Positions 25,733 to 43,374 of a stretch of DNA of 45,932 nt are shown here, piece after piece. The notes beneath the pieces were generated by a model that was given only the letters and a program-made list of their open reading frames with translations, had not been told where the DNA came from and searched no databases. Source of the DNA: Minisyncoccota bacterium (GTDB taxonomy: Bacteria > Patescibacteriota > Minisyncoccia > Phycocordibacterales > UBA12088). Position 1 is the stretch's first letter; each line of letters starts with the position of its first letter. The stretch covers positions 1-45,932 of the forward strand of contig JAYRER010000023.1 of the NCBI GenBank assembly GCA_041908795.1, given 5' to 3'. Both the position numbers and the translations under genes were made by a program.

Positions 25733-26623
25733 CCTGGCCTTGCGGCCATTCGTTCAAAATCCCTCCGGTCTTTCCCGGCGTCAGCACCGATTTAAAGCTC
25801 GTGTGCTTACTTTCTTGTCCTCGTACGAGGGACAAGAATCGACTCACTAAGTGTCGTACTGTCGTACGACACGTTCCAGTTGGAAGTAATCCACGAGCAG
25901 CTTCCGCTACCCGTGCCTTGTTACGACTTACGCCCTGTTACCGAACTTACCGTAGGCCCGAATGAATCGGGACGTCGGGTACTCCCGGCTCCCTTGCGTT
26001 GACGGGCGGTGAGTACAAGACTCGAGAACGTATTCACCGCAGTATAGCTGACCTGCGATTACTAGCGATTCCGACTTCATGTGGGCGAGTTGCAGCCCAC
26101 AATCCGAACTGAGGATACCTTTCTTAGGATTTGCTCAGGGTTACCCCGTCGCTTCCCGTTGTAGTACCCATTGTAGCGCGCGTGCCGCCCAAGGCATCAG
26201 AGGGCAATACGGACCTGGCGTCATCCCCACCTTCCTCCCAAAAAGGGCAGTCTCGCCTGACACTTGTAACAGACGACAGGGGTTGCGTTCGTTGCCCGAC
26301 TTAACGGTACAATTCAAACCACGAACTGACGACGGCCATGCAGCACCTGCCTAGCTGTCCGAAGAGGGCTCACGTTTCTGCGAGCTTTCAGCTAGGTTTC
26401 AAGCCTTGGTGAGGTTCTTCGCTTATCGACGAATTAAGCCGCACGCTCCACCGCTTGTGCGAGTCCCCGTCTATTCCTTTGAGTTTTAAGCTTGCGCTCG
26501 TACTACCCAGGCGCTTCACTTAACGCGTTAGCTTCGCCACGGAGAGGGTCGATACTCCCCATAGCTAGTGAAGATCGTTTAGGGCGTAGACTACCGGGGT
26601 CACGTTGTTACTGCGTACCAACG

Positions 26624-36924: not shown

Positions 36925-37104
36925 TAGCGCTTGCGCGCGCACCAAGCACGTCTGGGTGTACCCAAAACGTCACATTGTCAGATTTCCCAACAGGAAACTC
37001 GACGAATTAGTACACCTCGGCTCAACACATCACTGTGCTTCCACCTGGTGCCTATCAACGTAATAGTCTCTTACGGGTCTCAATTGATGCCTATTCTTGG
37101 AGTT

Positions 37105-37137
<33 letters not shown>

Positions 37138-37216
37138 GTTCCCGACATAGCTACCGAGCAGTGCAGCTGGCGCTACAGCTCGTACACCAGAGGTCAGTTC
37201 ATCCCGGTCCTCTCGT

Positions 37217-37977
37217 CGCATATACGTTCCATTGTTTCCAATGGGGCAGACTATATCTTCACCCAACCGTAGCTGGGTGACGGCATGTTATGGGAACCAT
37301 TGCGATATCCCCATCTTCACTTCAACATGTAGTCGAAGTTTCAGTCGTTACGGGGTCAAATCCAAGCTGTTTCAATAGCCCATCTCGCTTTCTTTTTCGA
37401 TGCGCTGAATAATTTTCATTTTGCACCGACAAAGTCAAATCTACAAGTTTGCGTATTTGCATATCCGATAGCAGTGAATATTTGACTGAAGCCAACATAT
37501 CACACGCCTCGATCATGGCAGCTACTTGCTTGTGTTTGAACCGCACATAGGGCGCAACTGTTTTGAGAATGTCACGTACTCTGGCAAAGCCATTGATACG
37601 CAACTCGGACATGCCATCGTTTCGTCTCGACACATATCCAATTCCCAACACCTCACGCATCCAATAGAGCGGTTGCTCATGGCGGGTGTCTTGATAGAGG
37701 CAAATAGTTGCCATAAAACGAAAGCCACGCGATGTGTCACTTCGTTTTTTGATCTGCAGCATTAAGCTGCCATCACCATCAAGAAAACCTGCCAGATATG
37801 CTATGTCACACTTGGATCGACTTCCCACGGTATTATCATATACCTTGTTCTGGTCCTCAAGCAAGTTGATTCGTACAGGACCGTACACAATTCAACTCTT
37901 AGCCCAGAGGGCACACAGACTTCACCGTTATAAGCCGCGTTGTCATCATGGATTACTCCATGAAGTAGCAATTTCTT
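37217..37977 (-). mobile_element. group I intron inside the sarcin-ricin loop of 23S (CCTTAGT^ACGAGAGGACC), carrying a LAGLIDADG gene
   Basis: Removing 37217-37977 restores TCCTTAGTACGAGAGGACCGGG. There is a U at -1 and the intron ends in G. Core motif GGGTGAAGATATAGTCTGCCCC lies near the 3' end. Confidence 0.8.
37322..37888 (-). CDS. LAGLIDADG homing endonuclease, single-motif (I-CreI-like)
   Basis: 188 aa with one LAGFLDGDGS motif. It lies entirely within the intron on the rRNA strand. The true start may be downstream of 37888. Confidence 0.85.
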   Translation of the reverse strand: MYGPVRINLLEDQNKVYDNTVGSRSKCDIAYLAGFLDGDGSLMLQIKKRSDTSRGFRFMATICLYQDTRHEQPLYWMREVLGIGYVSRRNDGMSELRINGFARVRDILKTVAPYVRFKHKQVAAMIEACDMLASVKYSLLSDMQIRKLVDLTLSVQNENYSAHRKRKRDGLLKQLGFDPVTTETSTTC

Positions 37978-38040
37978 ACTAAGGACAAATCTCCTCAAGA
38001 ATCGACGCCTACAGCAGATAGAGAACCAACCTGTCTCACG

Positions 38041-38439
38041 CATATGTTTCATTCGCACGTGTGCGAACTTCGCTCCCAATTACTTAGGAGTATCGGACTG
38101 TAATTTCTTCTCACTGCACAAGGTGCATTGAGAAGGTCGACGTTCAGTCTCTACGGGCCCCAGCACTTTCTAATAGTTCAAATCATGCGGACAGTACATA
38201 ATCTAAAAATAGATCAGCAAGGTCCATGTGTTTTGCACTTCTAGAAAGTGCTGGGTTCCCTCGGTATTGTCCCTGCGCTCGTTGGTAATTAGTGCATGGA
38301 TTTCACCGATACAAGTCGACGACGCACTTGTATGTCGCCACACAAGGCCGCCGTGTTGTTTCTACTCAATGTCTAAGCAAGGTCTTCCCTTGCCGCCGGG
38401 TTCAAACGGGTTCGGGTCGCAAGTTTTCTTGTAACCCAA
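38041..38439 (-). mobile_element. ORF-less group I-like intron at the L2593 (I-CreI) site of 23S (AACCGT^CGTGAGACAG)
   Basis: Removing 38041-38439 restores GGGTTCAAACCGTCGTGAGACAGG. There is a U at -1 and a terminal G. It has a core-like GAGAAGAAATTACAGTCCGATAC. Confidence 0.7.
38159..38255. repeat. 97-bp hairpin element of the GCACTTTCT family nested in the L2593 intron
   Basis: CCCAGCACTTTCTA (38159-38172) / TAGAAAGTGCTGGG (38242-38255), a perfect 14-bp inverted repeat. Confidence 0.85.
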
Positions 38440-38465
38440 ACGGTTTGAACCCAGCTCACGTACCT

Positions 38466-38499
<34 letters not shown>

Positions 38500-39243
38500 C
38501 ATTGTTTGTTAACCTTGTCTTCCGACAAGGATCAGACTATGCCTTCACCGTATTCACACTGTCACCAATGTGAACCTTAGGTGCGAGCCGTATGATAGAA
38601 TTCATTGTGATAATCCTATCTCACGACAGTACCAAACTACTGTCGATCAGTCGTTACAGGAGGTATATTCTTGGATCATGATCACATAGTTCAAACGACG
38701 GTTTTTGGACCGAAGGTTGAACCGAGACAATGCATCCGCCTTGCGAGCTACTCGCACAAGGTCGCCGCGACTCCTCACGGGAGTTGCGAGTATCGCTCGT
38801 GCAAGCACTACTTGCCTACGCTTCACATGTACAAACGGCTCGATGAGTGCAAGGAGCGTATCAACATGCTGTTGATCGCGCACAATCCACTCATGGGTCG
38901 TGCGATTTTTTCGCACATACCCTATACCGTACGTATCTGTGAGCCATGAAACCGGTTTTTTATCACGTTGTGTGATTTTTACAGTTACACGGACACGGAA
39001 GCCGTATTTTTTCTCTTTATGACGTTCAATGGTTGCCATAATGGCACCATCACCATCAATAAATCCGGCAAGATAGGCTCTTTGGGCTTCAGAAAATACC
39101 TTTCCCACGACGTTAGCTGGCATACACGCAGTGTACCTGGGACCTCATTGGTACCCAAGCGTACTATTGTGTATACGTAAGCCTTCGACGTTTTGGACTC
39201 GTATCTTACCCGTACGTTTCCATACGGGAGAGAAGGTAAGTTT
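38500..39243 (-). mobile_element. group I-like intron in 23S domain V (GGGGCTGGAGA^AGGTCCCAAGGG, ~E. coli 2533), carrying a LAGLIDADG gene
   Basis: The flanks align to GGGGCUGAAGUAGGUCCCAAGGG. The core motif GGTGAAGGCATAGTCTGATCC is present and the intron ends in G. The -1 exon base is A, not U, so the boundaries are +/-2 nt. Confidence 0.65.
38647..39123 (-). CDS. LAGLIDADG homing endonuclease, single-motif (I-CreI-like)
   Basis: 158 aa with one [10 protein letters not shown] motif, inside the intron on the rRNA strand. Confidence 0.85.
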
Positions 39244-39319
39244 TCTCCAGCCCCAGGATGAGGTGAGCCGACATCGAGGTGCCGAACTCCGCCGTCGCTA
39301 TGGACGCTTGGGCGGAACT

Positions 39320-39352
<33 letters not shown>

Positions 39353-39949
39353 AATCTCTGGCCGCGTCTAATGCGTACCATCGGTTCACTAGGTTCTGCT
39401 TTCGCACCTGCTCGACACGTACGTCTTGCAGTCAAGCCAGCTTATGCCCTTACACTATCGGCACGGTTTCCATTCGCGCCTAGCTGACCTTTGAACCCCT
39501 CCGTTACTTTTTAGGAGGGTACCGCCCCAGTAAAACTGCCTGCCACGCACTGTTCCTCACGGGTTTTGCCCGTGCAGGTTAGAATTTGCACACGTACAGA
39601 GTGGTATTTCACTGACGACTCCACAACCCCCAAGAGGGCCGCTTCAAAGTCTCCCACCTATGCTACGCAGTAAGCACGCAAACCCAATACGAAGCTGCAG
39701 TAAAGCTCCACGGGGTCTTTCTGTCTAGCTGCAGGTAACCGGCATCTTCACCGGTATTGCGTTTTCACCGAGCCACTCCCCGAGACAGTTGCCCAATCGT
39801 TACACCATTCGTGCGCGTCGGAACTTACCCGACAAGGAATTGCGCTACCTTAGGACGATTATAGTTATCGCCGACATTGACCAGGGCTTACAGCGCCCAG
39901 CTTAAGCACATTCTATGCACAACAGTATCGCTTACGAACTTTGTTGAGG

Positions 39950-40113
39950 GGCGAAGTTGGTTCGCCCTTTTTATTCTTTCTAAGACCATCGTTCGATGAT
40001 CTCGTGTATCTTTTTTTCCAACCAAGGCCGCATCGCAAACACTCCAACGACAAAGGTTAGGAAAAGCAACGGGTACACATCATTCATCTTTACTTCCCCT
40101 CATACACATAATT
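39950..40113 (-). other. 164-nt insertion closed by a 12-bp stem near the tip of the helix-68-equivalent of 23S
   Basis: ACTTTGTTGAGG (39938-39949) and CCTCAACAAAGT (40114-40125) are exact reverse complements. The flanks align just 5' of the helix-69 sequence (GATAACTATAATCGTCC). Confidence 0.7.
39980..40087 (-). CDS. candidate 35-aa hydrophobic peptide ORF inside the 23S insertion
   Basis: Hand translation gives MNDVYPLLFLTFVVGVFAMRPWLEKKIHEIIERWS*. GAGGGGAAGT lies 4 nt upstream of the ATG and a GGGCGAA/TTCGCCC hairpin follows the stop. It is too short for the supplied ORF track. Confidence 0.35.
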   Translation of the reverse strand: MNDVYPLLFLTFVVGVFAMRPWLEKKIHEIIERWS

Positions 40114-40274
40114 CCTCAACAAAGTCCGCAAGCGGGTATTGCGCACACAATGTGCCTAAACCAGCACTGGTTGACCTTCTGGCATTGGTCAGGTGTCACC
40201 CCCTATACATCCTCTTACGAGTTCGCAGGGAGCTGTGTTTTTGGTAAACAGTCGTCAGGCAAACTTTCGCTGCG

Positions 40275-40437
40275 CCCGGCACATCGCACTACGTGCGATG
40301 TGATATCAAAGTTCAAATATCAAAAGGCAAAAGTACGGTGTCGCTGTCGCGACGACTTTTACATTTTGACCTACAATTTTGATTCTTGCATTTTGATTTT
40401 TGACATCGGCTCATCACATGCAATGTGATGTGCCGGG
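40275..40437. repeat. 163-bp composite hairpin insertion (CCCGGCAC-type closing stem, AT-rich heptad arms) in the helix-63-equivalent of 23S
   Basis: CCCGGCACATC (40275-40285) / GATGTGCCGGG (40427-40437). The interior arms are ATATCAAAGTTCAAATATCAAAAGGCAAAAG ... CTTTTACATTTTGACCTACAATTTTGATTCTTGCATTTTGATTTTTGA, around a GTCGC-tgtc-GCGAC tip. Confidence 0.8.
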
Positions 40438-41010
40438 AGGCCTTATCCCTAAGTTACGGCCGCTTTTTTGCCGAGTTCCTTGGGGAGCTATCACTCGTTC
40501 GTCTTGGTCTTCTCGACCTTCCCACCTGTGTCGGTTTGCGGTACGGACTCTCTATAGCTAGAGCTTAGAAGATTTTCTTGGAAGCGCGCTCCTTCAAATT
40601 GTCGTTGGGCGAACCCGCCAACTTTCCGCTCCGCTTGGAATCAGCATTAAAGCAAGGTGCCCGGATTTACCTAAGCACCGTCCTCACGGCACGGACGACA
40701 AGCCAATAAGTCGCTTGAAGTACAGCCCTCCGTCCCTCCATCGCACTATAAAGAGGTGATGGAATATTAACCATCTGTCCATCGCCTCCCCCTTTCGGGA
40801 TCGGCTTAGGCCCGACTAACCCTTGGCTGATCATCATGGCCAAGGAAACCTTGGGATTTCGACGTGCGGGGATTTCACCCGCATTGCGGTTACTCGCTCC
40901 GGCATTCTCACTTCCGTACGCTCCACCATGGGTTTCCCTTTTGGCTTCACAGCAGAACGGAACGCTCTCCTACCACGCCGCTCGCATCTCGCTGCGCTCA
41001 AAGCTTCACG

Positions 41011-41299
41011 TAAATTCAAAACTCAAAATGCAAAGGTCAAAATGACAATGCAAAAAATCAAAGGTCTTTTGCTAATGAACTCTAATGGTCGGCCAAGTCA
41101 CGAGAATTGGCCAAAGTATTGGTGGATCCGACAGGATTGCGTACCTGTGACCTCTTGGATACCATCCAAGCGCTCTAATGAATGCACGTGTGCACCACCC
41201 GCATTCACCTACTGAGCTACGGACCCTTAGAATTCAAGAGCGGGAATTTTAATTTTTTAAGTTGCACTTTTGATTTTTGCGATTTGATTTTTGAATTTG
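41011..41299. other. 289-bp insertion in the 23S helix-45 hairpin (~E. coli 1170), AT-rich arms flanking a tRNA-like core
   Basis: AAATTCAAAA (41012-41021) pairs with TTTTGAATTT (41289-41298). The flanks (TCGTTCGCATCTC / GAGATGCGAGCGG) extend the native hairpin that follows GCTAAGCATGGTACCGAAACTGCGG. Confidence 0.75.
41120..41226 (-). ncRNA. tRNA-like element (degenerate tRNA-Thr GGU-like) embedded in the 23S gene
   Basis: Reverse complement reads GGGTCCG-TA-GCTC-AGTAGGT[30-nt hairpin GAATGC..GCATTC]ATTA-GAGC-G-CTTGG-ATGGTAT-CCAAG-AGGTC-ACAGG-TACGCAAT-CCTGT-CGGATCC-A-CCA. It is a full cloverleaf with a D-loop insertion, an aberrant 8-nt T-loop and an encoded CCA. Confidence 0.6.
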
Positions 41300-41949
41300 T
41301 GTTGCTTCGAATACAATGAGATGCGAACGACATCCGCAGTTTCGGTACCATGCTTAGCCCCGATCATCTTCGGCGCAGAGTCTCTAGATCAGTGAGCTGT
41401 TACGCTTTCTTTGAATGGTGGCTGCTTCTAAGCCAACATCCTGATTGTCACAGAAACTCCACCTCCTTAGTTTGCTACTTAGCATGGATTTAGGGACCTT
41501 AACTGGCGGTCTGGGCTGTTTCCCTTTTGACCAATGGAGCTTAGCCCCCACAGTCTGACTGCCATACTTTTGACCTCTGGTATTCGGAGTTTGATAGGTC
41601 TGACGAGATTGCTCCCTATTCAGACCTTCCAGTGCTCTACCCCCAAAGGGAACATATGACGCTAGCCCTAAAGCTATTTCGGAGAGAACCAGCTATTACG
41701 AGGTTCGATTAGCTTTTCACTCCTTACCACAAGTCATCCGATCGTGTCGCACTGCGAACCGGTTCGGGCCTCCACGGCCTGTTACAGCCGCTTCACCCTG
41801 CTCATGGTAAGCTCACCTCGATTCGGGTCTTACGCGCGCGACTGAATCGCCCTATTCAGACTCGCTTTCGCTGCGGCTCCGGGGGTCGCCCCTTAGCCAT
41901 AGCCACGTGCGTAAACTCGCCGGATCATTCTTCAATAGGCACGCCGTCA

Positions 41950-42044
41950 CCCGTCACTTTCTAAGACTCCAATATTCGCAAACTTTCGAGACATCTCGTG
42001 CACTCAAACATTTGCAATACGTTCGAGTTCTAGAAAGTGACGGG
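41950..42044. repeat. 95-bp hairpin element of the GCACTTTCT family in the 23S helix-25 position (~E. coli 545)
   Basis: CCCGTCACTTTCTA (41950-41963) / TAGAAAGTGACGGG (42031-42044), a perfect 14-bp inverted repeat. The flanks align to CAAGCAGTGGGAGC...TGACTGCGTACC of E. coli. Confidence 0.85.
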
Positions 42045-42094
42045 CTCCGACTCCTTGTAAGCATACGGTTTCAGTTCTATTTCACTCCCCTCCC

Positions 42095-42140
<46 letters not shown>

Positions 42141-42380
42141 TTGAAGAGTATTTAGCCTTGGGTGTTAGTCCACCCGGATTCACGCAGGCTATTCATGTCC
42201 CGCGCTACTCAGGAACGGTAGCAAGAGAGACGTGTTTGTTTTCGCGTACGGGGCTGTTACCCGCTGGGGCCGCCCTTTCCAGAGCGTTCCGCTAACAAAC
42301 ACATTTTATGACTCTCCTCGTTGCCGACACTACCGCCCTACAACCCCCATGCGCTCCGCTCGCACCACGCGCTCGCTCGC

Positions 42381-42507
42381 TAAACTCAAAAGTTAAAAGG
42401 GGAAATTCAAAAGTATGGCGTCGCTTTCGCAATCAAAATTATTGCAAATTCCGCAACGCGGAATTTGACCGCACTTTTGCATTTTTATTTTTCACTTTTG
42501 ATATTTG
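42381..42507. repeat. AT-rich heptad-arm hairpin insertion in 23S domain I
   Basis: The left arm (ctcaaaagt, ttcaaaagt, atcaaaatt) opposes the right arm (acttttgca, cacttttgat). It is flanked by the GC-rich stems GCGCTCGCTCGC / GCGAGTGTGCGC. Confidence 0.7.
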
Positions 42508-42583
42508 CGAGTGTGCGCAGCGTAAGCGGAGCACACGAGTTTGGGCTTCTTCCGTTTCGCTCGCCGCTACTAAGGAAATACCG

Positions 42584-42631
42584 GGATTTTTTACCGTACC
42601 GGCAAAAAAATGCCGTCACGGCAAAAAATCC
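42584..42631. repeat. 48-nt A/U-tract three-way insertion in 23S domain I
   Basis: GGATTTTTT-ACCGTACCGGC-AAAAAAA-TGCCGTCACGGC-AAAAAATCC. It is absent from the corresponding E. coli segment (CAACCGAGATTCCCCCAGTAGCGG). Confidence 0.55.
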
Positions 42632-42686
42632 GTTATTGGTTTCTTTTCCACCAGGTACTAAGATGTTTCAATTCCCTGGGTTTGCT

Positions 42687-42785
42687 CCCGGCACTTTCTA
42701 AAAATCTGACGTTCCCAGACACACACAAGGCACCACAGCCATCATGTTTTGTCTGCAAAAATACCGATTCTTAGAAAGTGCCGGG
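42687..42785. repeat. 99-bp hairpin element of the GCACTTTCT family near the 23S 5' end
   Basis: CCCGGCACTTTCTAA (42687-42701) / TTAGAAAGTGCCGGG (42771-42785), a perfect 15-bp inverted repeat. Confidence 0.9.
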
Positions 42786-43374
42786 TCCTTGAGGTTTGCT
42801 CAAGGGGGTTTCCCCATTCGGAGATCTCCGGATCAAAGGTTGCTAGACACCTCCCCGAAGCTTATCGCAGTCGTACCACGTCCTTCATCGCCTCTTCAAG
42901 CCAAGGCATCCACCGTATGCCCTTAGATTTCCTGTCGGGAAATCTAACAATTGTCGAATCCACGATACCGCCTCAATACCCGCAAAGGTATCGCATTGGA
43001 CGCACGACCACCACCGCATTGGGGTCTTTACTTCAGTGGAATTCAACTTGTATCCGGTGCGCTAAACGCTAACGCTACCGGACAGGTGTATGCTTTTTGC
43101 CCAGGAGCACCCCTGCTCCCGGGACTTACCCGCGTCCCGCACTAGGCACTTTCGCACCTACCGGGACCTATGTGATTGTCAACGTTCCGCCCTCCAGCCG
43201 CTTAAGTCATTCCGTCTCCGTTTCAACCCACATCATTGCCTGTGGAGTGTACCGAGAAAGAATGTTGATTGGTAAAGAAAAAACCGCTTGCGCGGTCTGC
43301 GTAGCCCCACACGTACAACGGCTAGCCGACCCGCGTTTGCTGTGAGCTGATAACACCCTTCATAAGGTAGAGAC

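Follow-up and report, generated by a model that had tools for sequence, protein, structure and literature searches.

We put at about one in two the probability that a short reading frame on the rRNA strand of a 23S rRNA gene is a genuine small-peptide gene, housed within an RNase III-type IVS or expansion at the apical loop of helix 68 in one genus of Paceibacteria-type CPR bacteria; this estimate is drawn from sequence comparison. ORF-bearing IVSs of 23S rRNA are known, and what is new here is the site together with an orphan small hydrophobic peptide. The window is the whole stretch of DNA analysed, a contig of 45,932 nt (C23) from a 769-kb, 97%-complete assembly, hereafter G000, and the second species of the genus is designated G001. 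Proteins adjoining the rRNA locus have homologues that carry the names Kaiserbacteria, Taylorbacteria and Paceibacterota.

Rfam models matched 23S, 5S and 16S rRNA in the window, all on the minus strand. The Rfam match to 23S rRNA covered 3.9 kb (39052-42937), whereas BLAST against E. coli 23S rRNA gave a true extent of ~42926 to 37006 on the minus strand and a gene length of about 5.9 kb (36990-42932). Because the BLAST alignment extends the gene to ~37006, the Rfam 3' end at 39052 is an alignment artefact. E. coli positions 2534-2593, 2657-2760 and 2821-2884 were mapped to 38499-38440, 37216-37113 and 37069-37006, respectively, with large insertions after E. coli ~2532, ~2593 and ~2656 and smaller ones elsewhere; this mapping therefore places three intron-sized insertions (~745, ~400 and ~760 nt) in domains V-VI. 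Two of the three contain LAGLIDADG ORFs (38647-39123 and 37322-37888), and both intron endonucleases were singletons in an exact look-up of the protein collection. Gaps in the E. coli mapping also revealed insertions at helices 25 and 45, the classical IVS sites.

An insertion-crowded 23S gene of this kind (three intron-sized insertions, two LAGLIDADG ORFs, and hairpins) resembles those in the survey of CPR rRNA insertions by Tsurumaki et al. (2024, PMC11270868), which reports that such insertions often encode proteins and suggests that the short uncharacterised ones may be RNase III IVSs. The helix-68 element fits this latter class, being short, not an intron and without a Pfam-annotated ORF. 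Since ORFs were annotated there through Pfam domains only, small orphan ORFs fell outside the assessment, and the survey text consulted describes no helix-68 peptide ORF (PMC11270868).

The insertion at helix 68 and its structural parts are listed below.

39907..40153, minus strand: full extent of the insertion, which takes the place of the helix-68 apical loop in 23S rRNA (E. coli ~1869-1872), from cmscan, BLAST and the fold (z = -8.1)
40114..40153, minus strand: 5' arm of the closing helix, from the MFE fold, an inverted repeat with 21-nt arms, and covariation
39907..39949, minus strand: 3' arm of the closing helix, from the MFE fold, the inverted repeat and covariation
39949..39967, minus strand: 7-bp GC hairpin, GGGCGAA/TTCGCCC, at the 3' end of the interior after a conserved A-rich tract, also present in G001

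The sequence-only reading had proposed a helix-68 insertion of 164-188 nt closed by a perfect 12-bp stem and containing the frame, which it followed immediately with the GC hairpin. The helix-68 location was right according to both cmscan and the E. coli mapping, while the insertion proved larger: cmscan set 247 nt against 2 consensus positions at the helix-68 apex, and BLAST gave 281 nt in place of E. coli 1855-1888 (34 nt, comprising the tetraloop 1869-1872 and the distal helix), flanked by E. coli 1764-1854 at 40262-40171 and 1889-2532 at 39889-39245. The two 12-nt arms (40114-40125 within the 5' arm and 39938-39949 within the 3' arm) are fully complementary, but in the MFE fold they are only the innermost part of a ~40-bp closing helix, of which the repeat finder reports 21-nt arms. 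The GC hairpin is present, although a 12-nt A-rich spacer separates it from the stop codon.

In the MFE fold, a multibranch interior follows the closing helix and has the GC hairpin as its final branch. A two-species consensus fold with G001 contained double changes that keep pairing at 4 of 31 closing-helix pairs and at 8 of 43 pairs over the whole element, and the seventh pair of the GC hairpin changes from A-U in G000 to G-C in G001. Beyond the outer helix and the GC hairpin no covariation was seen: the two species fold their interiors differently, and the interior of the insertion alone is modestly structured (z about -2 over the ORF region). The genome encodes RNase III (PF14622 match, 139.5 bits, G000:C42:4446-4832). 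An RNase III-type IVS is the most economical reading of the element, because the long helix is kept by compensation, RNase III is encoded, and insertions also occur at helices 25 and 45.

This reading places the element beside the RNase III-excised 23S IVSs of Coxiella burnetii and Leptospira (S23p), which are alike in their 23S helix-tip site, long stem, ORF and co-transcription with rRNA. The features of an RNase III IVS found here are the replacement of a helix tip, an evolutionarily kept stem of at least two turns (~40 bp), and a host RNase III. In contrast to classical IVSs, the site is helix 68 and not helix 25 or 45, and the product is a hydrophobic orphan of 35-48 aa, whereas S23p (23S_rRNA_IVP) is a four-helix family of ~120 aa. 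Excision is known for IVSs and is predicted here from the folded helix and the RNase III gene. In Coxiella, the S23p ORF lies in an RNase III-excised 23S IVS whose RNA is rapidly degraded after excision, and the ORF is apparently untranslated (PMC4990558). A peptide gene co-transcribed with 23S rRNA and freed by excision had been called unusual by the sequence-only reading, which needs qualification, since ORFs in 23S IVSs (PMC4990558) and protein-coding CPR rRNA insertions (PMC11270868) are both known.

Two further observations concern the DNA of the insertion. On the plus strand, where a T-run comes after the GC hairpin, 39946-39980 is scored as an intrinsic terminator; the layout is the same in G001, and there is no evident transcript for this site to end. 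A dispersed MITE-like hairpin element was considered and rejected: the insertion is single-copy in G000 without target duplication, and its arms are unrelated to the two other hairpin families of the region.

The reading frame within the insertion had been reported with its start, stop and 35-aa product, all of which were confirmed.

39980..40087, minus strand (rRNA strand): 35-codon ORF P0001, ATG at 40087 to TAG at 39980, encoding a 16-residue hydrophobic stretch and a charged tail

An in-frame stop lies 5 codons upstream of the ATG. The best 15-mer hydropathy (KD15) was 2.29 for P0001 and 2.59 for its G001 counterpart P0002, in a hydrophobic stretch of only 16 residues. The tail was said to be amphipathic; it is charged, but its hydrophobic moment was ordinary compared with shuffles (P = 0.36), which leaves that description unsupported. 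Length in itself is unremarkable, since an ATG ORF as long as P0001 arose in shuffles with P = 0.14 and the 23S gene span contains 17 sense ATG ORFs of at least 30 codons, two of which are the LAGLIDADG genes. The combination of an open frame with a hydrophobic N-terminus was rare in the G000 shuffles (7.5e-4).

Annotation pipelines mask rRNA genes, and an exact look-up in a 15-billion-protein collection returned neither P0001 nor P0002. Pfam gave no family at E<=10 for P0001, P0002 or a 56-aa form, and the ORF product did not match the 23S_rRNA_IVP (S23p) family. A profile search of 1.84 billion representative proteins yielded 0 matches, a word-indexed protein search with both peptides yielded no candidates, and look-alikes in the ESM Atlas (scores <=0.82) were uninformative. 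A six-frame profile search of 400 class-level genomes returned about as many matches as expected by chance and no homologue. A soluble protein of ~345 aa recurred in that search; its HPHCQ motif leads us to read it as putatively GalT-like, and it was rejected as a mere resemblance. No paralogue or donor of the ORF was found elsewhere in G000.

The homologous insertion in G001 is 289 nt long and contains P0002, a 48-aa ORF counted from its ATG, which lies one codon upstream of the G000 ATG in the alignment and in the same frame. Conservation of the frame in homologous insertions, named by the sequence-only reading as a check, was thus borne out in the one homologue, G001, where the frame and its aligned start are kept, the N-terminus is hydrophobic and the periodicity is of the coding type. 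The two insertions align well at the closing helix, at a purine-rich block before the start, and at the A-tract with the 3' GC hairpin, and poorly in between. Both peptides open with 16 hydrophobic residues followed by a shared R-x-W-L-[DE]-x-K-[IV]; they are 33% identical, and BLASTP found a 4-residue match only. The C-termini are not homologous, since P0002 reads through the A-tract into the loop of the GC hairpin, whereas P0001 stops 12 nt before the hairpin.

To gauge divergence, a syntenic neighbour gene was compared between the two genomes: its protein is 81% identical, while 100 four-fold degenerate sites are only 44% identical, which puts neutral sites close to saturation, so that an unselected, drifting frame would be expected to have decayed. 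Nucleotide identity across the ORF is about that of neutral sites. In 10,000 dinucleotide shuffles of the G001 interior with the start fixed, at least 34 open codons followed the start in 16%, whereas an open frame together with a hydrophobic 15-mer (KD>=2.0 within the first 24 residues) occurred in 0.05% (5/10,000). T was concentrated at codon position 2 of the hydrophobic stretch in both species (G000, 11/16, P = 0.009; G001, 12/16, P = 0.003; hypergeometric). In a nucleotide-only MAFFT alignment, identity at codon positions 1, 2 and 3 was 31%, 60% and 37%, a pattern for which a non-coding RNA gives no reason. The codon log-likelihood against base composition was 0.10 per codon in G000 (0.104) and 0.12 in G001; real genes score 0.14 +/- 0.12, and small ORFs arising by chance -0.05 +/- 0.10. 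These values were reached by 6% (G000) and 4.5% (G001) of chance small ORFs and by 9% (G000) and 0.7% (G001) of open shuffles, and in codon usage the remaining two frames resemble the off-frames of genes. These comparisons involve two sequences, with the G001 tests designed after its peptide had been seen, and n=2 does not permit a real dN/dS. Taken together, the evidence favours, at a little better than even strength, selection on the encoded peptide.

We further measured the anchor-to-anchor distance across helix 68 in 89 23S genes of the same order. The results showed a basal helix 68 in 61 of the 89 genes (18-52 nt between anchors), while 26 carried expansions of 67-211 nt, which are simple near-perfect hairpins of short repeated motifs and low complexity. 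None of these 26 expansions contained an ATG ORF for a hydrophobic peptide. The long complex form occurred in two genes only, those of G000 (281 nt) and G001 (289 nt), the latter being the sole other species of the genus in its 26-genome family. Within the order, hairpin growth therefore has a hot spot at the tip of helix 68, and the ORF-bearing form is a genus-level novelty. Expansions across the order consist of lineage-specific short repeats, often between two small conserved hairpins. Additional homologues were sought by three routes. A metagenome scan with the flank anchors and an insertion-size gap gave 11 matches, all by chance in unrelated DNA; a scan of the conserved 3' module over all species-representative genomes found the G001 contig (CAYLHB010000001.1) only; and a syntenic 217-aa neighbour, used as a route to more 23S genes, had relatives at most 54% identical once past G001 (82%), on contigs with a channel gene where the 23S gene would be.

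This distribution bears on the main competing explanation, that the element is a non-coding expansion segment or IVS, the longest and most complex version in its genus, and that both ORFs are chance frames in a fast-evolving interior. We regard this as a serious contender, at somewhat less than even odds. ORF-less helix-68 expansions in 26 of the other 87 sampled genes are what it would lead one to expect, as is the frequency of open frames of such length from a fixed start (14-16% of shuffles). In G001, a 101-aa ORF also spans the insertion on the antisense strand, so long open frames do occur here without meaning. The two peptides are barely alignable and had no relatives in the searches, and the conserved blocks (helix, A-tract, 3' hairpin and a GAAGUAA block) are RNA-level features, one of which is coding in G001 and untranslated in G000. 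The lack of SD use in G000, described below, points the same way. What chance frames leave unexplained is the concentration of T at position 2 in the same frame of both species, and the pattern of conservation, which is highest at position 2 and no better than random at positions 1 and 3. Gene-like codon usage in both frames and the joint shuffle probability of 5e-4 for G001 also argue against chance, and the two interiors share no RNA fold to which constraint could be ascribed.

A decaying relic, in which part of a membrane-protein gene, start region included, was captured in the genus ancestor and is no longer expressed, would reconcile coding-like periodicity with the absence of a detectable family and with the differing C-termini, and reductive evolution of the Coxiella S23p ORF has been reported (PMC4990558). 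We judge this highly improbable. With four-fold sites only 44% identical, a relic should have lost both frame and periodicity in at least one lineage, and no donor or paralogue turned up in G000 or among the 400 class-level genomes.

If the frame is a genuine gene within an RNase III-type IVS, as we prefer, RNase III would cut the pre-23S transcript in the long closing helix, fragmenting 23S rRNA at helix 68 and freeing an RNA of roughly 170-250 nt. The freed RNA would have the layout of a mini-mRNA, with a leader that exposes the start codon in a loop, then the ORF, then a hairpin that stabilises the 3' end. Its translation would yield a membrane-inserted peptide of 35-48 aa whose synthesis would be tied to rRNA transcription, and which might act as a small membrane regulator or as a toxin-like membrane peptide. 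Alternatively, the insertion may not be excised but be kept as an expansion segment of the ribosome, with a frame that goes unread. A more specific proposal, which we consider possible but doubtful, is that the RNA is a purpose-built mini-mRNA: RNase III would free a hairpin-capped transcript that recruits ribosomes, in an organism otherwise lacking Shine-Dalgarno initiation, through an 8-bp match to the aberrant 16S tail of the lineage, with the rRNA promoter as its only promoter, so that a membrane peptide would be made in step with ribosome synthesis. The two sequences concerned are as follows.

25879..25892, minus strand: 16S 3' tail GGAUUACUUCCAAC, with CUUCC instead of the canonical CCUCC, identical in G001
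40090..40097, minus strand: GGAAGUAA, an 8-nt complement of the 16S tail that ends 2 nt before the ATG and is unpaired in the predicted fold

The duplex of GGAAGUAA with the 16S tail comprises 8 bp at -10.7 kcal/mol, a value reached by 0.07% of random genomic 20-mers, and a scan of the 23S stretch delimited by Rfam (39052-42937) found only one other such site. The counterpart in G001 is ordinary (-6.6 kcal/mol) and overlaps the G001 ATG. Upstream of 653 G000 genes with near-unambiguous starts, complementarity was not in excess, whether to the native tail or to the canonical one. The Shine-Dalgarno motif that had been claimed for the ORF is thus a real complement and exceptional in G000, but neither the second species nor the genome at large lends it the meaning of a ribosome-binding signal. 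The most enriched words in the 20 nt before G000 starts were TATAC, GTATA and TGGTA, resembling a -10 box abutting the start; such words just upstream of starts (TATACT) suggest that leaderless mRNAs may be widespread in G000. A start codon within a fragment processed from rRNA may be hard to recognise in this setting, since the genome lacks SD use and looks leaderless, and the 35-codon ORF has neither a leaderless context nor, by consensus scan, a promoter of its own. The scan covered 39850-40250 on either strand and was empty, and an internal promoter for the ORF was rejected on this ground.

The 16S tail was also considered across relatives. The anti-SD core reads AUUCC in three other family members. 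A family-wide pairing of helix-68 expansions with the 16S tail was rejected on inspection, without computation, because the tail of the relatives differs (AUUCC) and their expansion arms have no visible match.

The sequence-only reading had likened the peptide to Fst, Ldr and Hok toxins. Type I toxins (Hok, Ldr, Fst, TisB, Ibs/ShoB) are indeed alike in size and in a single hydrophobic segment followed by charged residues, and their ORFs are likewise buried in strongly folded RNA; on this analogy, P0001 would be a type I toxin silenced by RNA structure or by an antisense RNA, making the insertion addictive. A small hydrophobic peptide encoded in strongly structured RNA fits such an account, as does the pairing of the purine-rich leader with codons 5-8 in the predicted fold of G001. 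We nevertheless find it very unlikely. P0001 lacks a match to any Pfam toxin family (no Pfam match at all at E<=10), and the empty consensus scan offers no promoter-like site for an antisense RNA, so the toxin identification is unsupported. The hydrophobic stretch is short at 16 residues, expression would come from the rRNA precursor, and a toxin driven by rRNA transcription would reach very high transcript levels. Addiction would moreover have no obvious role, because the insertion cannot be lost by segregation.

Peptides encoded in rRNA genes include the pentapeptide mini-gene of E. coli 23S rRNA and the mitochondrial humanin and MOTS-c, whose ORFs lie in conserved functional rRNA sequence. 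P0001 is like these in being a short sense-strand ORF in an rRNA gene, but it differs in that the insertion around it is dispensable and lineage-specific and supplies a leader and a 3' hairpin of its own. If the frame is translated, small genes can lie concealed in the short insertions of CPR rRNA that are classed as uncharacterised, and P0001 would be a natural example of a protein coupled in its expression to the transcription and processing of rRNA, and a way into the question of how internal starts are selected by ribosomes without SD use. If it is not, the pair of insertions would serve as a calibration case of the coding-like look that chance can produce in a two-species comparison.

Two other parts of the 23S gene merit description. 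Within the helix-45 insertion, an Rfam tRNA model matched 41123-41226 on the minus strand (104 nt, 48.2 bits against a gathering score of 29), between 51-nt AT-rich inverted arms (41012-41062 and 41248-41298). ARAGORN called no tRNA at 41123-41226, and the segment may represent a degenerate tRNA lying within rRNA, or a fold of tRNA-like shape. In G001, the 23S helix-69 region carries an insertion of ~780 nt (G001:C1:66719-67499) that is absent from G000 and corresponds to ~39860 in the window and E. coli ~1917. The 23S genes of many relatives are split close to this position (query 574/575), and the CPR survey lists it as a LAGLIDADG intron site (PMC11270868).
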